From: Cirrosporium novae-zelandiae
Taxonomy: Eukaryota
Assembly: GCA_026023565.1 (NCBI GenBank)
Contig: JAPETS010000038.1
Location: forward strand, 1-64,000
Direction of reading: 5' to 3'
Length of the DNA stretch: 64,000 bases
The position numbers and the translations under genes are program-made. Positions 44,954 to 64,000 of this stretch are shown in pieces. The notes below the pieces were generated by a model, which did no database searches, had not been told where the DNA came from, and saw only the letters and a list, made by a program, of their open reading frames with translations. Each line of letters opens with the position of its first letter. Within the stretch, counting starts at the first letter, position 1.

Positions 44954-46114
44954 TCACTTCGCCAAAGAACACACCCACCCTTTCCCCTTGGCATTGATCG
45001 CCTGATACTCCTTCCAATCGTCAAGCTCATCAGACATTGGATGTCTCATTGCTTCCTTCATGCTTGGCTGACCTGGCTCTCTTTTTAATTCAAAAACATA
45101 CTCCATATTGTCTTCGTCTTGGTTTTCGTGGCAGCGAAGTTTCACACTATGTCCCGAAATTCGATATCTGTATAAGCTTTATTAGCAAGCAAATATATAA
45201 CCTTGTAGGCTTCTTCGATATTCTTACAGGCCATCATATCTGACTCCACAAGCTGGAGCAAACTTGGAGCCAAGTTTGGACGTTCGAAGGATGCGGACAC
45301 TCCGTCTGTTAACTAGATTATGCATCACGCGAAAGACCCCTTTGGTCTTATTCGAGCTGTGGTAATAGATGGTACCGCCGCCTTTATCGTCAATCTCGTT
45401 AAGTGTACCTTTCAGTACAATAGCATATGCATTTATGGAATCATGAGTGATGTCGTTAGTTGAGTTGTCGATAATTCCGTCACGGAAGGCAGCAGCTTGC
45501 TTGATCCACCATCTATTTAATCAGCGTCATGCTCGAGCCTCGCATATGAAACTATGGCTTGCTGCAAGCACTAGAAAAAACCAAACATTGAAAATAACTT
45601 ACTGTCCAACCTGAAACCCATTATGACCGAAGACATAAGCGTTCGTGGGGTCTGCAGACTTTACTATCCACCTTGAACTGCTTCTGTGCCTTGCTAATTG
45701 CCCTTCTTCTTTCTCTGCATTAGCACCGTCATATTTCTCAGTACTGGTTTTGCAACACCCTTCCATCCTCCCCCCCGGCTCCCATAGGTTGGATTGGATA
45801 AGAGATAGAGGGCCAAGATTTTCCTCCCACTCTGAAAGAATATGTTGTGCATTCTTGACAATCTCCAGACTCCAGTGCCGATGACTATTGCAGATTTCTT
45901 CTAATGCATTGTGGATCCGAGAATAACTGAGCATGTGCACGGTAACCTTTGATACCTCAAGCTTCTGTAAAAACTCAGATAGACGGTTAATGGAATGCCC
46001 ACTTAGGTAATTAAATCCGCCCTGTATGACCTGTGGAAGAATAACATCTCGAAGATAGCGAGTATTATAGCGTAATTCCTGCTTGCTAAAAGTGATTAGC
46101 TTGGTTTGAGACAT
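44954..46114 (-). CDS. SRA-YDG domain protein with N-terminal TFIIS-N-like helical region, at least 3 exons (start uncertain)
   Basis: The spliced reading is FGHNGFQVGQ|WWIKQAAAFRDG...AYAIVLKG...SVRILRTSKLGSKFAPACGVRYDGL|YRISG...VFELKREPGQP. The middle exon (~45229-45512) is not in the ORF track. Confidence 0.8.
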
Positions 46115-47412
46115 ATCGATGAATCCTCAATGAGCTGCAAGTTATCGCTGATAGTCTGATGTCTCAAGTTTAGTCAATGGAGTGGTTCAATTACATGAGA
46201 AACTAACTCCAAGTACTTGGACTAGATTTGCAAGGATAGTATTCTCTCGTTAAATAAAATCCAAAATATAAATTAGACAAGAGCGGATAGAGAACATCTT
46301 AACTCGACAACTGCGGCGATTGGGAAAGTGAATGTGGTTGGAACCAGCGATGTTCATTCACTTAAGCATGGGCAATTCACACCTATCGCTCGAAACAGGA
46401 AAATACTGACATAACACGATTCCATCCTTCCCATGGTTCAGCCAGAGTTATATTTGTGCAAATCGCCACATATCACATGGACGTGAATGGTTGGCGACAT
46501 TGATTGCGCTCCCCTTACTTGAGGCAACATGATGTTATTTACCACTTGAATATTGATAAACTCGTCGATTATTTGATGCGATCTATCCACGACTGATGTT
46601 TTAGAACCCTTACTCCTAATCCCCCAGATGAAAAACCATGGGAGAGCTCGGGGGCAACATTAGCCATTTATTCTCATCGATTCCGGTCGAACCTCTTAAT
46701 TTCTTATACCTTCGAATAGAATTTGGGCAACTCGAGGAATGAGAAGGAATAGGATTTGGCTTCGGCGATATCTATATAGCTTCGGCGACACAGTCATTAT
46801 TTTTGCTTTCATATATATTTTCTAGGCATCAATGGGAATTAATTGGCTAAATGGCAGGTGAGATGTGAAGCACCAACTCTTCCCCCACATTTCACGTCGG
46901 TCTGAAGTGAAGCATATGTTTGTTGCTTCGTGAAAAAATAAATAGACTGAAGCATGGGCCAGAACGCGTTCTCCTACTTTTAATACTTAACACGGGTAAA
47001 ACGGCATGAACGCGTCATGGGGTTTTTTTGGTTAAGCCATATCAAGATTAACTATTGGCTGAATAGGTCATGTACTTGGATAAACATACGTACTAACCAT
47101 TATTGAGATGGAAAAACGAGGATCCGAAGAGTAGAAACACGAATTGTATTCTCAATCAAAGTCCAAGAAAGTCAAGCTTTTTCATGCCGGAGAAGGAACT
47201 AATGCAGAGTCAACGGAGTTATATCCACGCTACTAGTTATAACCGAAACTACCCACTATCACCGCCACGCCAATGACTCTTTGCTTCAATTGCCTGTAGC
47301 AATGCATAGTACATAGATATCGCTAGACCTTAATCCTGACAATTCTTGAAGCTATATATTCTCACCATGATTTCCATTTCTCATCATAACCAACAAAGCT
47401 CATATCAACATC

Positions 47413-49814: not shown

Positions 49815-51169
49815 ATGCCCCCTCCTATGACCTTATCAGATCGCCCACGATGGCGAAATCAGGTGTGCCTATACCTTTTGTCCTTCTTGTTATTGTCGAA
49901 CTGCTCTATAACCGATGCCTTACACCATATGAAACGAGACCGCGTTCACTGGGTCAATCGAAGAGCTAGCGACAAGCCATTGAACATAATAAACCAATGC
50001 AGAGAAACAATATATCCTGGTATCCTTACCAATTCAGGTACTGGGCCAGGTACCGGTGGTTTTAAACTTGAGGCAGGGGGCGTCAATAATTTATCTGTCA
50101 GTGCGGACTGGTCAGGCAGAGTTTGGGGTCGAACAAATTGCAGTTTCAATGCCAATGGGACTGGGGCTTCGAATAGTGGTCTGAATGGTGGAGGCCAAGC
50201 GTGTACGACTGGTGACTGTGGTGGTGTTGTAGATTGTCAAGGAACAGTTAGTCTTTATACGGTGGCAGATGTCTAATATTCAATCTGATTTTAGGGCAGG
50301 GGAATCTACCAACTACAATCGCCGAGTTTACACTCGAATCTGATACCGGACAAAGTTTTTATGATATATCGCTTGTTGATGGATACAATCTTCCCCTAGG
50401 AATCGTATCATTGCACACGGAATCTGGCAATTCGTCAATTACGGATATCCCACCCAATCTTACTAACCCAGTGTGCATTGCTACTGTTTCTCAACTTGAA
50501 CCTCAGGGGTCTGAGGAGGACGCTACTCTAGGAACGAACAGTTCTTATCCACTTCCCTTGGACCAAACAGTCACCTTTAGTACTGTGGAGAGTTGGTGCC
50601 CTTGGGATTTGCAATTAGACCCACCAGACAAGCCAGGAGATGGGGTTTACCCCTATCCAGATGATGATATTCAGAGACCACTGTTTGATCCGTGCTATTC
50701 GGCATGTGCATACTACAAGTCTGACGCAGACTGCTGTACTGGATCTCATAACTCCGCCAGTAAATGTTCACCTAGTGAATATAGCAAATCTGCCAAGAAC
50801 GTTTGTCCTGACTGCTACAGCTATGGTAATTTAACTCTCTCTAATAGCTTGCTAGCTGAGCTGATGTTTCGTGATATAGCATACGATGACCAAACATCCA
50901 CATTCATCATTCCCTCGGGAGGCGGGTTCGAAATCATATTTTGCGCTGAAGGCCGATCAACGAACATTCTTGCAACCTTTGGCGATGAGCTTCGAGCGAT
51001 TGCAGCCGGTGCAACAGTTTCCGCCCAATTAAGAAAAGAGTTGCAGAATGCCACCGTGATTGAACAAAATAATACTCGATCCTCGGCTGACGGAAGAGTG
51101 ATGTTGATGGGGAATAGTTGGATGGCAATGGCTGTTGCTATGGGAGTTGCGGTGGGAATGTCTGTGATG

Positions 51170-51175
<6 letters not shown>
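49815..51175 (+). CDS. Thaumatin-like protein, probably secreted and GPI-anchored, multi-exon
   Basis: WSGRVWGRTNC, CTTGDCGG, AEFTL, FYDISLVDGYNLP, CPDCYSY|AYDDQTSTF and a hydrophobic C-terminal tail. Confidence 0.92.
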
Positions 51176-51203
<28 letters not shown>

Positions 51204-51623: not shown

Positions 51624-53930
51624 TCACATCAAAGCCAACTCAACAAGCACGGTCCGTCCCATTTTTTCACCACCACCACCTCTACCCCCTACATCCCCAA
51701 GAAGAAATCTCGCTTTCCTCCCCTCCCAACATACCCGAAATGTCCGTTCGCATCCTGGTTCTAGATCCCGACAGTCGTTTACGCCATCGCCTAATAAGCC
51801 TCCTAATTCCCCTTCGTATCCGTATTGATCATCAGGGTCGTCATTGTTATTGGTTCTAACGTCTAGACTCTCCCTCCGCCGATCGAGCGCTCGAGCTTGG
51901 ACTGTGAAAATCCTGTTGGATGATGAAGTGGCGGTGGTGATGGGGGAGGGATAGGTACGAGGGTTAAAATCCGGATTTTTGTTATTCGAGGTTTGATCTT
52001 CGTCGTCCGATGAGGAGTACTCGACGGCGATGTCCAGAGAATTGTAGATGAATTTTGCGGCGGGATGCGTGGTTGAGACTGTTGCGGGGGCGGGGATTGA
52101 GAGGGTCGAGGAGAGGCTTAGGGTGCTGGTGGTGGCGATTGGGTGAGCATAGAAGAGGGAGGGGGATCGGCTTCGTGGGGTTGCGGTTGGGAGGGAGTAT
52201 ATTGAGGAGGAGGCTGTGGGGATTGGGAGGGTGGTTTTTGGTTGGGGTTGTTGTTGGGGGGGGGACTTTGGCGTTGGTTTTGGGAGTAAGGGCTCTTTTG
52301 AGAGGGATGAGAATGTGGCGTGTGAATGCCAGGGGTGGAGATTGTTGTTTTCGTTTTCATTTTCGTTTTCATTATCATTATCGAGTCGGCTGTAGTATCC
52401 CGAGTCGTGGCGGAGGGTTGTTGTTGGCGTAAGTGATTGAGATGAGGACGTGACGGAGGAGCGGTGGGAAAGCTTGAGGCTTGAGGGCCTTTGCCGTTGT
52501 CGTAGTCGTTGGATTCGCTGTGAGTTCTTGGATGAATGGGTTTGGGCTTGGTGGAGTGAAGGGATTTCGGCCAATGTGGATGCGGAGCCGGTCGTCACCA
52601 GGCTCTCCATCGAGTCGAAAACTTCACTTTCTTCCACCATCGGTCTGGGGGCGGAAAAGTCTTTTGATGGTGCGGAGGAAAGCCGATCGAGTTCTGTCCG
52701 CATGTCTAGTAGCACCCCTTGGATTTTGTCTCGAGTCTCGCTGTTGTATGGCACTTGCTCAATATCGGGGATGGACCAATTTTCCATCAATTTGCCGTTT
52801 GTGTTTGGGATGTAGTATTTCCGGTGTTGCTTGATGAATAAATCGCATAGGAAGCATGAGCTCTTGTTTATCCCGATGACTCTCGGTCGAGAACGCAGGA
52901 TATGCGTGCTCAGAAACGTTACCATGGTGATTTCGGGATGGACGTGGCGGTTCTGACCGGCTACCTGCATTGGCCCATAATTCGAAATTGGCGTGAACGC
53001 GAAATCTGTGAAGCTTGCCCGATAATGTCTGGCCAGTCGGCTCAGCGCCTTGCAAGCACCCCAATATCTGCTCAGCTTGTCAAGTTGCCGTATCGGCTTC
53101 ATGAATGCGGCAATATCGACATTGCGTTCCTTCAGGGCCGTTTCCAATGTTCTCCGTCTCATGAGTGTAGAAATGTTATACGCCTCTTTAGCTATCTGTC
53201 CCAGGATCTCTTGCTCTTCTTCCTCGCTCAATTTCGTAGATTCGAGGAAGATGTAGGATTCGTTGAGCCGACGGATCGCTTCGCCCAGCTGGAGTTGGCC
53301 GTTGCATGTTTTGCGGCCCAGGTCAGGTATTGGGGTGGATTCTATGAAAGTGAGCAGTTCGAAGAGGAGAGGCCGGTTTGGGCGATCCGGGTGGGGATGC
53401 TTTGAGGACTCGAGACGGGCATGGATGAGGGGAGCATGATAAGGGAGAATGAGGGAGAAAATTGCTGTGGCGGACTCGTTGCGGGAAATACTCTTGAGGG
53501 CACAAGATGAAAGAGTTTGAAGGATTGATTTGATCATGTCTTTCTGTTCCAAAGGGAAATCCTGCGTTTCAACTCCATAGAATAAAAGAGCATTCTGCTC
53601 CCTGGCTTCCTCAACCACAACTGCGTGGGTCGCACAATCCTCCCCCACTTCTCTCCCTGCCAAAAAGGCCAAGTCGCTAACCCAGGTTCGCTCATCTCCA
53701 AATTTCAAAATATTCTTGCCATCATGATTTCCACGCTCTTTCCACTGGTAATGGTGATATTTCGATTCTGATGCAGGGTAGAGGCCAGATTTAGCGGCAA
53801 TTAGCGAGATATCCCTGTAGAATTGGAGCTGGTCGATTCCCTGCCAAACGGGGGCGGTGGAAAACCAGTTGTTACGGAGGGCCTTGAAAGCACTGAGACG
53901 GGAGGTACTAGCGTGAGGTGTTCTAGACAT
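51624..53930 (-). CDS. OTT_1508-like nucleic acid/nucleotide deaminase, paralogue A
   Basis: 768-aa ORF with deaminase zinc motif RHVHPEI...RVIGINKSSCFLCDLFI...TNGKLMENWSIP and N-terminal DLAFLA...AVVVEE. Confidence 0.82.
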   Translation of the reverse strand: MSRTPHASTSRLSAFKALRNNWFSTAPVWQGIDQLQFYRDISLIAAKSGLYPASESKYHHYQWKERGNHDGKNILKFGDERTWVSDLAFLAGREVGEDCATHAVVVEEAREQNALLFYGVETQDFPLEQKDMIKSILQTLSSCALKSISRNESATAIFSLILPYHAPLIHARLESSKHPHPDRPNRPLLFELLTFIESTPIPDLGRKTCNGQLQLGEAIRRLNESYIFLESTKLSEEEEQEILGQIAKEAYNISTLMRRRTLETALKERNVDIAAFMKPIRQLDKLSRYWGACKALSRLARHYRASFTDFAFTPISNYGPMQVAGQNRHVHPEITMVTFLSTHILRSRPRVIGINKSSCFLCDLFIKQHRKYYIPNTNGKLMENWSIPDIEQVPYNSETRDKIQGVLLDMRTELDRLSSAPSKDFSAPRPMVEESEVFDSMESLVTTGSASTLAEIPSLHQAQTHSSKNSQRIQRLRQRQRPSSLKLSHRSSVTSSSQSLTPTTTLRHDSGYYSRLDNDNENENENENNNLHPWHSHATFSSLSKEPLLPKPTPKSPPQQQPQPKTTLPIPTASSSIYSLPTATPRSRSPSLFYAHPIATTSTLSLSSTLSIPAPATVSTTHPAAKFIYNSLDIAVEYSSSDDEDQTSNNKNPDFNPRTYPSPITTATSSSNRIFTVQARALDRRRESLDVRTNNNDDPDDQYGYEGELGGLLGDGVNDCRDLEPGCERTFRVCWEGRKARFLLGDVGGRGGGGEKMGRTVLVELALM

Positions 53931-56778
53931 ATTTGCGGGAGGTTGGGCATCTGAGACTTCGACATGACGAGCAGCTATATAGACCTACCTGATAACAAAT
54001 AAATAAGAGATATCTAATTCACGGTGACCGAAACATTGAAGCAAAGGTAAGGATGTGGGGGGTTGAGGAACGCCTCTGTGATGCTTAGATGCAGGTTTGG
54101 GTAACCAGCAACAAGAATTGAGGTCAAGGGGGGGCTGCATGACAACTATGAAAACTAGGTAAAAATGGCATGAATTGGAGTTGGCAACATTGGCAAGGTT
54201 GGCAACGATGTCAGGAATGGCAAAGATGGCAAAGGACGTATAATGTGTACAGCGTTAGGTTCATTGGTTTGGGAGGTTGGTGGAAGCTTTGTCGGAGTTT
54301 ATTTTGTATTGGTTCCTTGCCCCTCCTTCTGTGGCATCCACTACTACCTAGGTATTTTGCTTCAACCATTCGGAGACCGAAAACATATCTGAAGCTGACT
54401 ATTAACAGGTTAAGCTGAGCACTTATACCTTCGGGCTGAATCCTTGGCTAATGTCATAAATCCTCTATCCTGCACCTTTGTGGAGCTGAAGGTCACCAAG
54501 CTTGACCATGTGCACATGGAGTAGGAACAATTTTGCGAATCGCGATTTATTCACCAACAAGCTTGATTTCTAGAGCAATCGGAAAATACTTGTACAGCGT
54601 GAAGCTTAGAAACAAGTGTCAATGCAATCCTGAAAAACAATCCTGGTCTAGCAGGATTTTTATCTCCACTTATCGCCCCGTAAGCGTAACATGCGTTAGT
54701 CGGTACCGTTGCTCGTTGATCATAGGATCCTGAAATAGCTGACATGGCCAAGGTAATTCTTATATCCCACTCCCGATTGGTGTTCAAGGTCTGCCAAACG
54801 AAGTACTGTACAGAGAAAGAGGGAAAGCTTTACATCCTTAGCTAGTGTCTAGGCGTCGGCTCGAGTGGCTGAAGCTGTTCAACCCGTTGCAGCACAGATT
54901 CTACACTATTTCAGAATCTCATGGATATCGGTACTAAATTATGGTAAATATAGGACCTACCAATCGGAATACATCTAACCGTGAGTTACTTGAATATGAT
55001 AACAACTAAGGATGATGATAAAGGCATCGCAGAGAAAACAAGAGGCTTTCCAAACTCCAATTATACGCGAACGCGGGGATATGCCGTTAACTTCTACTAT
55101 AGATACCTAGGTACCTACCTTAATTTAACGACTAGATCTCCGCATAAACAAGCCGGGGCAATCAGTCAATAGTCTCGATCTCCAGGTATGCCGACGGTAT
55201 CTCTTCAAACTGGAATTTGGTGAACCTAGAAAACATTCCCGTCTGTTACCATTGCAACCAGGTCATGACTTGCACTTCAATATCATGCGAGTTTATCAAC
55301 TTGACGGATGGCTTTCTGAAAATTCTAAACTTGCTTTAGAATCCCTATTAGGATAACTAAGAAGTCTGCTCAAACTTGTTTATTAAAGCTTCTTCTAATG
55401 TGGAAGTCCGAAGAGCTGTTGATATATCATGCGACTTTCTTATAATGCATTGAAGGAGGGAGAATTTTACTTTCCTCCTCTACTTTAGCAGAAAGTATGT
55501 CAGTTCTACTACTTCCATAGTATTCACAGAGCCTTTTGAGCTTTGTGGCTGAATTGTGTTCAGATCACAGAAATCTACAAATTTTCGTATACGATAGCCG
55601 TAGATATATTTATTTAGATTGAAGGCGTGGAGATCCAAAGCGAGTGAATATAGGCGCTGTGCCATATTAGAAACGAGCTTTCCGAAGTACCGCTGTTATA
55701 AGTCTAATCCTGCGAGAATATCATCCAAATGATACAAGCAATTTACTATTATCAAAGAGTTTCCCTAGTACAGTACAGTACATTATAAAAAGAGCCAACA
55801 TCTACAAAACAAAATTACTACTAAACCCTTAAGTTAAAAAAGATCCAAAGTAAGAAGAGCAAGAGGAGGAGAAGTAAGATAAAGGATTATCTAGATTATT
55901 GCCACTTAATTTAATAAAAGTATACCCCCCCAGCTCCCACAAAACTAACCTTCACACATCCGCCATCATCTGTGGCGTTCACTATTTATCCCTTCCATCT
56001 GCCGTGGCGCAAACCACCACCACTACCAAGAGAAGAACAACTGACACCAGTATGATCAATCACTAATTAGCGCTCTTCATCTCAAAAAGAAAAGAAAAGA
56101 AAGAAAAAAGTATATCCCCACCATCTTGGTTCCCTTCTCCTTCCCCCCTCCCACCCATCCCATCCTATCCAGTCCAGCATAAACAATAACAACAACAACA
56201 ACGACAATGACAATAATTAAACCCTCCCCCCAAACTCAGAATCAAAATTTCCCTAGGAATAATAATAAAATCAAATAAATCAAATATGATTTCTTCAAGC
56301 CCGAGGCGTACGATCAAGAAAGAAAAAAAAAAGCGGGGGGAGGTTAATTAATACTTGGATGTGTGGGTGTGTATATGATAAAATCTCTCACAGGTCACAG
56401 GTGGAAGGAAGGAAGGAAAGAAGTTCTGTGTGTGCAAGTTGTATAGATGGATAGATAGATAGATATTATATTCTCGCATACGATAAGATACGTCCGTCTC
56501 TTTTTTTTTTTTAAACATGAGGATAAGAAAACTAGTTTTTGATGATGGACTATACGTAATGAATGAGATGATCTCATGTAATGGATTTATCTTTTTTTTT
56601 TTTTTCGATGGCTATCTCACCTTGAGCTAATTAAATGCAATTTGCTTTCAGACAATAATTCCACCACATATACCAAAAAACATTATGTCACGCTTGACGG
56701 GACGGCACTTGTAATACAATAATATGACTAAAATGAATAGTTAAGGTAAATGGCTTGAAGAAGCAATTTCAAGAAGGC

Positions 56779-57071
56779 TTGCAGTGAGTTATTGCAAGCT
56801 CGAAGAACTTCTAGCCGGCCGATATAGCTTTCCTAACCGAGTAACCATCGACACAAGCTGCGAAACTGTTATTTCAATGGCGAGTCTATTATTCGGTGAA
56901 GCTTTCTCACATAGTGCATCTAAAGTGTTCCCTTTCATCATGTAGGTGGGCCCTTTTTGATGGGTTTTCTTAGGAAATAACAGTTACATAGCCTGTCTCG
57001 GTGGCACATAGGAGCTGGAAAGCTATATCGGCTGGTTGGAGCTTTCATGGCCTGCAATAGCACTCTAGCAA
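56779..57071. repeat. Long imperfect inverted repeat (~97-bp arms, ~98-bp spacer)
   Basis: Perfect pairings: 56818-56833 with 57017-57032 (16 bp), 56864-56875 with 56974-56985 (12 bp) and 56790-56796 with 57053-57059. The sequence between them aligns collinearly. Confidence 0.88.
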
Positions 57072-57093
57072 AGTTAATGACGACATTACAAGG

Positions 57094-59128
57094 CTAATCT
57101 GCTCGGGATAGTTCCACGAACAAGTTATCCTTACTTCTGCCGACACAAATTAGGACCTTTCTACTACTTCCCTCCAGTAATGGAAAAGTCACGTCTTTTC
57201 CAACAGGCAAATCTCGATAGTCAACAATAGTATGATGGGCACTATCAGTCTTCATATTAGCTTGAGCTTCTTGATCAATTTGACGAATATGAACCGAAGT
57301 CTTCGAGGAACCTTTGTCCATTAACGGAGAAGGGCCTAAGGCATCCATTAGCTAACAATGCAACAACTCTTGCTGCTCTCAAAAGGAGCAAAAACCTTCA
57401 TGTTCAATATCCAAGTTTACAGTTTCTGAGTGCACCCTTCGAGACCTGTTTGGGGATATTTGCATGTGTAAATCAGGAATAGTGTTCGGGTGCAGTACCA
57501 GAGTGCTGGACGAGGTCGCCTCAGAATGGCCATTAAGTTGATTTGTATCATGATTGATGGATGCGTTTCTACCCATTGAAACCTCCTTCACTTTATCATT
57601 CGGCCCGCTCTGATCAAATTCTGGGGGTTTGGGAGTTTTACGACCCATCACGTGAACTGATGAACTTCGAAGGCTTTGTCTAGAATTTCTGGGAACAAGG
57701 TATAAATTTCCTTGGTTTGGCCCTCGAATTATATCATCGTTGACAATTGGCAAGTGCTCTTGGAGAGCCGCCAAGTCTGGAAGATCCTCTGGTACGCCGC
57801 ATCTCAAAGACTCCATCGAAGGGTCGACCACAAAACTCTCCATTCCAATATTACGCGGTACTTGAGGATCAAGTTCGACTAAAAGCAGATTCTGTAGCAT
57901 GCCCAATATCGACCCTAACGTATTTTTGAATCGCATTCGTGTGGCATTGCTATACGCTTCGAGATCGGGAATGGCCCATTGATGATACAACTTTCCATGA
58001 GTTGCAGATACGTAATACTGCTTATGGGCTGTAATGAATGCGTCACAAAGAAAGCAGGAAGCTTTATTGCAGCCGATGATTCTGGGGCGAGGATAGGAGG
58101 GGTGAAGTTCCATATAAGTAACTAACTGAATTTCAGCATGGACATGTCGTTTCTCGCCACTCAGTTTACAGGAGGTATAAGCGGCCATGGGAATGAATGA
58201 GAATTTTTTGAATCTAGACGTATTCTCAGCGGCAAAACTGCCGAACTCAATACATACTCGCCTATACCTGGCAAGCTTGTCAAGCTTGCGGACCGACTTT
58301 CTCACTTGGTCACTTGAATCATCTAGAATTTCGGAGAGAGAAGATTCCAAGGTTCTCCGACTAAGCATGATTGATATTTCATAGGCTTGATTTATGATCA
58401 TCGAAATAATCTCTATCTTGCGTTTATCTGATTCATCCCGAGAAAGCAATTGCGCCCGATGCATATCGTAGTTATCACTCAACTCCTGGGTACGTGTTTT
58501 AAGATTTTCGAAATAATCGGGGTTCTGAGAGTGGATGGAATCAATGGCATTTCGAAATTTGTCGATTAGGGGAGTTGTAGACGGAGGGTGTAGCCTTGTG
58601 AGTATTCGTTTCTGATGCGAAGTCACGACTTGCGTGAACATTATTTTAGTACAGGCCTCACGATCTGACGCTGTAACTGATTAGACGGGAATTATGTTGG
58701 CCAGAGTAGAAGTTACGTTTAGCCGCTATCATCTCAAATTGTCTCAGTATGGATTCTAGAAGTTCTCGAACGGGCTCTTTGATACCATCATTGGTAGCTG
58801 CCCTGATCCTGAGAGCTTTCGCTTTTACATCTTCTTCAATTATAGTCGCAGTTATATATTTGCCGTTCTGGAAGATGTGTCCTGCTCCCGGAGAAGAAAT
58901 GAAAGCCAGGTCGTCGGCTAGGAATCTTTCATCGTGGAATTGTAGAGATCGAGACCCATTGTGATTACCTCTTCGTTTCCAATCAGAATGGGTGTAAGTC
59001 GCTTCTCCTCTGAGCTGATCCTTATATTTTGCTTTGGTCTTTTGGATTTTATCATAGAACTGTTCTTGTCCAAGTTCTGCAAATATCGAATTCTGTTGGG
59101 TCGCAGTCAAGGTGGGAAGTTTGTCCAT
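57094..59128 (-). CDS. OTT_1508-like nucleic acid/nucleotide deaminase, paralogue B, 3 exons
   Basis: RHVHAEIQLV...RIIGCNKASCFLCDAFI...THGKLYHQWAIP. Introns 58671-58716 and 57336-57395 join ORFs 58658, 57379 and 57094 in frame. Confidence 0.85.
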
Positions 59129-59518: not shown

Positions 59519-60927
59519 ATGCCACAAAATATCAAGGTTGCGGTCTCACAATCTCGTACACTTTCCACCACTTCTGCAACTCTCCGTTCCCTCGAGGCTA
59601 CTACACGGAAAGCTGCCTCAGAGGGTGTCCATTTGATTCTTTTCCCTGAAGCCTACCTCGGTGGATACCCGCGTACTTGCACCTTTGGTTCTTCAGTAGG
59701 TGCCCGTGCCTCAGAAGGTCGAGAGCAATTCCTCCATTATCTTCATGACGCCGTGGACCTAGGTGACACACCAGCTGGTGCTGGTGATGACTGGGTGAAT
59801 AGAAAATTACCGATTGCCAAAGGAAAAGAATATAGAGGAGATGGCACGCGTGAGGAGCTTGAAAGAATAGCCAAGGAGACCGGTGTGTTTGTGGTGACGG
59901 GACTTGTAGAGCGTTGTGCTGGAAGTCTATACTGTGGTGCAGTTTATGTGTGTCCTAGGTTTGGAATTTTGGGTAAGAGAAGGAAGGTTATGCCTGTAAG
60001 TTCTTTCAATCGGTCATATCTTGACTGTTGTTAATGCTATACCAGACTGGTAGCGAGAGAATCGTATGGGCACAAGGATCGCCATCGACATTGAAGGCAA
60101 TCAGTACCGAAATCCAAGGTGTGAAGATAACACTCGCAGCAGCTATTTGCTGGGAAAACTACATGCCACTTTTAAGATTCAGCTTATATTCTCAAAATAT
60201 CAATCTTTATCTTGCGCCTACAGCGGATGCACGAGAAGCTTGGCTTCCACTGATGCAAACAATTGCATGTGAGAGCAGGGCTTATGTGTTAAGTGCTAAT
60301 CAATGTGTGAGAAGAAAACACTTGCCAACCTGGATCACAGGAGAGGCATCCAAGAAAAGTGACGAGCCTGGAGAGAGTGATTACGTTGTTAAAGGAGCCA
60401 AGCTACGTCGGACCTCCACTGTCACAATCCCCGAAGGTGGTCATGAAATTGTACTACAATCTCCAACACTAGACTCATCAAATCCATTTTTCGATGACTC
60501 TAATGCCTCACAGGGCCTAGCTTCTACTATTTCTGATGGAAGTGTCATTGAAAATCAGGACCATCCACCACCACTATCAAAAACAGGACGGAGAACATCT
60601 ATAATAACAAAGACTGAGGATAGCCATGAAATACTATGGCCCTGCTCAAAGACCACATCGAGTGCCGAACCAACGGAAAAAACGACTACGTCTGACCAGG
60701 CAGCGGACAACTTCGTCTGCCGTGGCGGTAGCTGCATAATTGGGCCATTAGGTCAAGTTTTAGCCGGTCCATTATGGGAAGTGGATGAAGGCGGTCTTCT
60801 CATTGCAAATATTGATTTCGAAGATTGCGAGAAGGGTAAAATGGACCTTGACGTTTCTGGTAGCTATTCCAGAAATGATGCATTCAAGCTTACTGTCACT
60901 GGCTTGGATCTCAATCCCCCGCCCTAG
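59519..60927 (+). CDS. Nitrilase (carbon-nitrogen hydrolase, Nit1-like), 2 exons
   Basis: Catalytic triad motifs [21 protein letters not shown] and ICWENYMP, plus C-terminal [10 protein letters not shown]. Intron ~59996-60045. Confidence 0.92.
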
Positions 60928-63785: not shown

Positions 63786-63904
63786 ACATACGACCATAGG
63801 CTCAAGAGAACTGGGCATCCCATCCGCTCTGCCAGACATAAACTTGAGACCGGTTGGTTAGTAGTTGGGTCGGTGACGACCAGCGAATACCAACTGTTGT
63901 ATGT
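63786..63904 (+). rRNA. Dispersed 5S rRNA gene (variant type)
   Basis: ACATACGACCATAGG...GTTAGTAGTTGGGTCGGTGACGACCAGCGAATACCAACTGTTGTATGT is 119 nt with complementary ends. A long poly-T Pol III terminator follows, and an AT-rich TTTAAA sits ~30 nt upstream. Confidence 0.95.
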
Positions 63905-64000
63905 TTTTTTTTTTTTGGTTCCTTTCAAGTATGTATATGTATGGGAGATATGCGAAGTAGACTCGCAAAACGATTTTCCTTGTATAGGAGTATGTGCAAA

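Follow-up and report, generated by a model that had tools for sequence, protein, structure and literature searches.

The question raised by positions 51,624 to 59,128 of a 64,000-nt stretch from the fungus Cirrosporium novae-zelandiae (GenBank assembly GCA_026023565.1, contig JAPETS010000038.1, positions 1 to 64,000; the whole stretch is called the window below) is what two OTT_1508-like deaminases, encoded by genes A and B, act upon with no zinc-finger gene at their side. The reference case is the OLD-ZAO antiviral editing module of Neurospora crassa (Honda et al. 2025, as presented in the review PMC12754623), which is a recently found third system of adenosine-to-inosine (A-to-I) mRNA editing and whose generality is called unknown in PMC13327615. 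At the present locus, membership in the deaminase family, intact zinc-binding and catalytic residues, common descent of the copies and the lack of a zinc-finger neighbour are matters of observation. A known family has here expanded in an ordinary way, multi-copy and divergent fungal OTT_1508 genes having already been described in passages of PMC3239186. What the two enzymes would edit is addressed more tentatively after the locus and its relatives have been described.

Two intact deaminase genes and a dead copy between them

The features of the locus are the following.

51624..53930, minus strand: gene A, OTT_1508-like deaminase, one open frame in a single exon, 768 amino acids, with a long low-complexity linker
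52764..52943, minus strand: PF14441 core of gene A, with His331, Glu333, Cys359 and Cys362
57094..59128, minus strand: gene B, OTT_1508-like deaminase, 642 amino acids (annotated product P0003), three exons
59128-58717, 58670-57396 and 57335-57094, minus strand: exons of gene B
57964..58143, minus strand: PF14441 core of gene B, with His315, Glu317, Cys343 and Cys346
58671..58716, minus strand: intron 1 of gene B, 46 nt, phase 1
57336..57395, minus strand: predicted intron 2 of gene B (public annotation), 60 nt, in frame, containing TGA and TAG
57094-57590, minus strand: C-terminal all-beta domain of B, residues about 513-638, from profile and model
about 54900..55700, minus strand: third, dead copy (limits approximate), degenerate, frameshifted and with stops
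55467-55381, 55318-55250, 55161-55132 and 55082-54954, minus strand: colinear fragments of the dead copy, in three reading frames

Genes A and B are members of the OTT_1508-like deaminase clade. Against the curated PF14441 cut-off of 27 bits, A scores 57.4 bits (E 1.4e-15) and B 71.1 bits (E 7.6e-20, in exon 2), so that the family call of the original prediction, made from the sequence alone, passes the profile check for both genes. Its description of two co-oriented and strongly diverged paralogues about 3.2 kb apart is likewise borne out, since 3,164 nt separate the stop of B from the start of A and the two proteins share 32.7% identity across 453 columns (E 2e-59); and the N-terminal block, the HxE...IGxNKxSCFLC core and the SMESL motif that it had reported as shared were each located in both. 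The active-site motif reads HPE...GINK..CFLC in A and HAE...GCNK..CFLC in B, with HxE and a GxxK before CxxC in both cases. The loop after strand 4 has, across the clade, a polar residue, usually His, together with an aromatic-x-x-Pro motif, and this appears as His with W..P in B and as Asn with W..P in A. In fact, all of the features listed for the OTT_1508 clade in Table 1 of PMC3239186 are found here. The His, the Glu and both Cys are invariant across an alignment of 81 relatives and are retained in A and B. Among 150 family proteins the HxE motif is HAE in 129, HGE in seven and another variant in two, 11 giving no motif match; HPE is found solely in A.

The original prediction spoke of a tandem pair. 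Two intact genes are indeed present; the array is, however, a triplet, with a dead copy lying between them at about 54900-55700. A tblastn search with B matches 55106-54960 (E 1e-10), and PF14441 gives 32.6 bits across a stretch with two TAG codons. Three pieces, colinear but each in a different frame, are picked up by a family profile (44.5, 9.0 and 5.6 bits); the two weaker ones rest on their order and strand, because a low-complexity match on the opposite strand scored 7.0 bits. The zinc-binding His has become Tyr and is followed by a stop. The core of this relic scores best with B (130), then with the paralogue on contig C72 (117) and then with A (97). As a cause of its decay, repeat-induced point mutation (RIP) is not borne out by the signature score, since no clear RIP-type signature was found in the copy and 17% of the window's stretches score equally high. 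Decay of the middle copy, set against the retention in A and B of the four invariant residues, speaks for purifying selection on the two genes.

As judged from sequence phylogeny, A, B and the paralogue on another contig form one clade inside a large Pezizomycotina family. A profile made from A, B and the C72 paralogue found 1,850 of 1.84 billion representatives (50% clustering) at E <= 0.001. In a FastTree analysis of 148 cores (156 at the outset, eight being removed as motif-less), A, B, the C72 gene and protein P0005 constitute one clade (0.996); and an IQ-TREE analysis of 24 of those sequences recovers the same clade (96.6/98) and places A closer to P0005 than to B (87/94). The split between A and B is therefore old. 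The C72 paralogue, like five metagenome relatives, has a phase-1 intron at the site of intron 1 of B; A has none there, so that it either lost the intron or arose through RNA. The genome holds at least five intact family genes (A, B and three others) and one relic. Best non-self identities among the best 150 representatives are 25-38%. Of 30 proteins looked up, 19 have named organisms, and 17 of these come from other fungi, including Pycnora, Vezdaea, Lecanora, Pyricularia, Phialocephala and Venturia. These relatives were selected for their similarity to A, B and the C72 gene and hence are no sample of the whole family.

In the structural model of B (mean predicted local distance difference test score, pLDDT, 80.8; predicted template modelling score 0.74), an alpha+beta part at the N terminus is followed by a helical insert and then by the core, which a disordered linker joins to the beta domain at the C terminus. 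Strands lie at 93-100 and 105-112, helices across the insert (118-286) and the HxE helix at 316-326, mostly with pLDDT above 90. This predicted architecture fits the fungal OTT_1508 form given in Table 1 of PMC3239186. No sequence match to a solved deaminase was found, and a Foldseek search with the B model found no match at E <= 0.001; a VIA search with the whole model reached a best Z of 9.4, all 50 rows being helical bundles aligned to the insert. The C-terminal all-beta domain, of about 110 residues, appears from profile searches to be a family trait. The profile, built from 44 relatives, gives B 35 bits against 3.4 for the best of 100 shuffles, and 58 of 103 other relatives score at least 15 bits; the domain is also seen in relative L019 (L019:1063-1392). 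The sharing of this domain by A and B, as originally proposed, is clear on the side of B, whereas in A the domain is only weakly recognisable: the whole-protein score is negative and its two halves, separated by low-complexity insertions, are equalled by 34/300 and 3/300 shuffles. No Pfam family covers it. A model of the domain taken from L019, which lies outside the window, has eight strands (pLDDT 87.9), and its best structural match (Z 3.8, root-mean-square deviation 4.1, 90 aligned) together with the lack of a Foldseek match is evidence for neither a known fold nor a novel one.

Neighbours of the locus and of its relatives

The genes that flank the array are the following.

49860..51178 (start approximate), plus strand: thaumatin-family gene (PF00314), convergent with gene A
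59519..60927, plus strand: nitrilase-family gene (PF00795), divergent from gene B, the starts lying about 390 nt apart

Both identities agree with those first assigned by eye, and the absence of a C2H2 gene in or beside the pair was confirmed with a profile built from this genome's own finger genes. When trained on half of them, the profile found 15 of 15 held-out loci at 15-32 bits, a slightly generous control in that a few of these overlap the training set. With all fingers included, nothing reached 8 bits in the 64-kb window and the next 10 kb, in 20 kb surrounding every other family gene of the genome (three in all), or in 39 metagenome loci carrying family members, which fall into 18 different groups, 13 of them spanning 10 kb or more. 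There is no PF00096 match on the window's contig (C61), and a Pfam scan of 176 neighbouring frames of family loci revealed no C2H2 family. These metagenome loci are distant relatives, since placement was attempted for 16, ten entered the tree and none fell inside the A/B clade; a second family copy or any gene of the window, thaumatin and nitrilase included, is absent from all 39.

The lack of a zinc-finger neighbour is thus the common state among the relatives seen. The original prediction had taken the locus for a special variant arrangement, and this idea finds no support: the C2H2-less state holds in every relative seen (3/3 other loci of the genome and 39/39 metagenome loci), which makes the arrangement ordinary. 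The synteny comparison pointed the same way, the thaumatin and nitrilase neighbours recurring at none of the 39 related loci. The contexts seen suggest that many fungal members of the family lack such a neighbour, and the question then becomes what these members edit.

Other neighbourhoods have also been recorded. Immediately upstream of the family gene, L018 and L020 both retain a RasGAP gene, so that a small neighbourhood is conserved within that branch. A sister subfamily, which includes the gene of this genome at 615 kb of contig C13, looks more defensive. One of its genes (L026:404-11191, one of the 13 long loci) sits some 2.3 kb downstream of Dicer; a divergent Argonaute gene comes beyond, and there is no C2H2 gene. 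L040, of the same subfamily, adjoins SF1 (superfamily 1) helicase, PigL_N and PNP_UDP genes, and L045, also of this subfamily, lies among HNH, kinase and transposase genes. The neighbours of L040, L045, L051 and L052 (SF1 helicase, PigL_N, PNP_UDP, HNH, fungal kinase, DUF7924 and transposase) are like those of defence or mobile islands. All of these neighbourhoods are isolated instances, not weighed against chance expectation. The most distant family member of the genome (L001, G000:C13:681608-684118) has a cysteine-rich stretch after its deaminase core, which we take by eye to resemble a MYND finger, a call that Pfam did not make; a Zn2Cys6 transcription factor gene lies 4 kb downstream of it.

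Closer to A and B, a gene with NB-ARC and DUF7779 matches lies about 8 kb past gene B (L013:3137-5002, that is G000:C61:67137-69002, minus strand); as a meaningful neighbour it was rejected, since with 74 plus 9 matches of this kind in the genome such closeness is unsurprising. A small gene at 44998-46126 of the window (minus strand), 5.5 kb from A, has a weak SAD/SRA match (E 2e-5, below the cut-off) and a TFIIS-like helical bundle. A single 5S rRNA gene at 63786-63905 (plus strand) is the sole Rfam match in the 44-64 kb interval.

Candidate targets and candidate roles

A target other than zao, as was originally proposed, is plausible, although three candidate targets that were examined failed: a neighbouring gene, the second intron of gene B itself (taken up below) and NOD-like receptor genes. 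A neighbouring gene was rejected as the edited target: among stop-joined frame pairs in 133 kb around four family loci there were seven with TAG, seven with TAA and eight with TGA, that is, no excess of TAG; none of the pairs (at least 70 codons) seemed by eye to be coding on both sides, and no editable in-frame UAG was seen. Another place to look is the genome's zinc-finger genes, which account for 57 PF00096 matches. The CHE1 pattern (a TAG standing between a long open frame and the fingers), taken from PMC11169179, is absent from the 47 stretches that cover these matches, where introns could hide it, and the longest frame before a TAG has 42 codons. Near-identical C2H2 genes recur near the starts of contigs C5, C90, C105, C125 and C126 of this genome (G000), and C35 and C47 have identical matches at identical positions; therefore, the assembly may hold duplicated contigs. 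Finally, NOD-like receptor (NLR) genes were considered as targets in trans, choosing the eight of 74 NPHP3_N matches that have TAG as the only listed inside stops. Ten TAGs in these eight genes are not intronic-looking and none stands at a Trp column of the eight-row alignment. Two NLR-type NACHT genes were read further. One (L109, G000:C40:291300-294700) has, besides its in-frame TAG, a TAA and a frameshift; in the other (L108, G000:C71:16800-20400), some 940 codons long, two exonic TAGs are the only lesions seen. Plain pseudogenes explain the lone TAGs, and NLR genes were rejected as targets, L108 being less settled.

The reading that we favour, with a confidence falling just short of even, is that the locus is a birth-and-death array of ZAO-independent OTT_1508-like deaminases that would edit RNA from A to I in trans and would be induced by virus, double-stranded RNA or stress. 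An old series of duplications in the lineage would have left A and B intact, with the dead copy in the middle and, on contig C72, a fourth paralogue. Each protein would bind zinc through its His and two Cys, with the Glu serving hydrolytic deamination. By analogy with OLD-1 and OLD-2 of Neurospora, adenosine would be converted to inosine in the hairpin loops of a few mRNAs, and induction is proposed by the same analogy (virus-induced genes were taken from PMC7648066). Having no partner in cis, the deaminases would find their substrates in trans, in unlinked RNA of the host or of a virus, for which there is a precedent, given that OLD-1 edits sites besides zao (PMC12754623); and the helical insert and the C-terminal beta domain would be the likely selectors of target or cofactor. 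Also in favour of this reading are the PF14441 scores, the clade features, the invariant residues retained in A and B, the grouping of A, B, the C72 gene and P0005, and, from the sister subfamily, the neighbourhoods with Dicer and Argonaute (L026) and with the SF1 helicase (L040).

Several observations weigh against this reading. The four long loci that score nearest to A and B sit among housekeeping genes (RasGAP, bystin, proteasome ATPase), and the defence-like neighbourhoods belong to the sister subfamily and not to that of A and B. No Neurospora or Fusarium protein is found among the 19 proteins with named organisms, so that orthology with OLD-1/2 is putative; nor did word-based homologue searches, which are insensitive and gave 2, 6 and 28 matches, bring in a Neurospora sequence. 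Gene A may be weakened, its HPE motif being found in one of 150 family proteins. Moreover, passages of PMC3239186 put the clade with AID/APOBEC and expected cytosine deamination.

That expectation is the basis of the first rival, unlikely in our estimate, by which A and B would deaminate cytosine or DNA, the outcome being mutation of selfish elements, viruses or non-self nuclei, or else death of the cell. Such a mutator or killer role was proposed in 2011 (PMC3239186) and fits the fast divergence and gene turnover of the family; on the other hand, the sole fungal members tested edit A to I in mRNA (PMC12754623), and the dead copy has no clear RIP-type signature. A constitutive housekeeping role (on tRNA, another structured RNA or a nucleotide), with the array as an accident of local duplication, is quite unlikely. 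It agrees with the single copy at all 39 relative loci, with a tree that broadly tracks fungal classes and with the RasGAP neighbour kept in two relatives, whereas best identities of 25-38%, 1,850 representatives and a dead copy would be unusual for housekeeping enzymes. It is improbable that the locus represents a standard OLD-ZAO system with its zao target relocated in the genome: OLD-1 acts on both zao loci, reaching one of the two in trans (PMC12754623), and there are 57 PF00096 matches where such a target might lie, but none of the 47 finger stretches has the CHE1 pattern, with the same reservation about introns, and the module is listed only for Eurotiomycetes, Sordariomycetes and one basidiomycete (PMC12754623).

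A division of labour like that of Tad2 and Tad3, with B catalytic and A a weakened partner or regulator, would be compatible with trans editing by the array and is in itself distinctly improbable. The HPE motif unique to A, its long linker and the cofactors that OLD is said to need, called unknown in PMC12754623, speak for it; against it, A retains the catalytic Glu that is missing in Tad3, and no second copy lies alongside at any of the 39 relative loci. Finally, self-control of gene B, in which the second intron would stay unspliced and its in-frame stops be edited to give a full-length protein, was rejected as having next to no probability, for although the 60-nt stretch is in frame with a weak donor and falsely predicted introns have hidden CHE1 stops (PMC11169179), two stops would need editing and one is UGA, the branch site and acceptor are good, the spliced product agrees with the domain model of the family apart from a short insert and the RNA is no more stably folded than shuffled versions (z 0.03 and 1.06), so that splicing explains the two stops better.

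For the ZAO-independent array, a bolder and rather doubtful extension can be formulated. ZAO-free deaminases might be an ancestral and widespread fungal editing defence, of which OLD-ZAO would be a late specialisation; unlinked host or viral RNA would be chosen by means of the C-terminal all-beta domain, which may be a new fold; and the array would diversify targets by duplication and loss, with A possibly regulating B. If editing of mRNA in trans were true, fungal antiviral editing would widen beyond one gene pair and more candidate editors would be available for tool building. The use of the locus is comparative, A and B being compact, divergent, single-chain deaminases, and its value lies in what the ZAO-free members edit and in the role of the C-terminal domain. 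No paper on ZAO-free fungal members or on this domain was found, most subscription journals being outside the coverage of the search.

Comparison with known systems

Three systems offer points of comparison. The locus is like the Tad2-Tad3(-Ame1) A-to-I editing of fungal mRNA in its predicted deaminase fold, its HxE...CxxC zinc site and the possible pairing of two paralogues; unlike Tad2-Tad3, A and B belong to a different clade and both keep the catalytic Glu. With OLD-ZAO of Neurospora it shares the same Pfam domain, the HxE...CxxC centre and the presence of more than one paralogue per genome. In contrast, A and B have neither an adjacent C2H2 gene nor a neighbour with an editable UAG, and the two paralogues adjoin each other, whereas in Neurospora each has its own target. 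The host, moreover, belongs to the Xylobotryomycetes, outside the groups listed for the module (PMC12754623). Judged by its neighbours, the locus does not correspond to an OLD-ZAO module. The third comparison is with the fungal OTT_1508 deaminases of PMC3239186 (Iyer et al. 2011), whose expansions have been described as reaching up to 16 copies with extreme divergence and for which a role against mycoviruses and non-self nuclei has been proposed. The present genes are like them in the HxE and GxxK-CxxC core, the aromatic-x-x-Pro loop, the helical insert and the N-terminal alpha+beta part, as well as in their lineage-specific copies and extreme divergence; the C-terminal all-beta domain and the tandem array with a dead copy, which go unmentioned in the main-text passages of that paper, are what the present locus places beside it.

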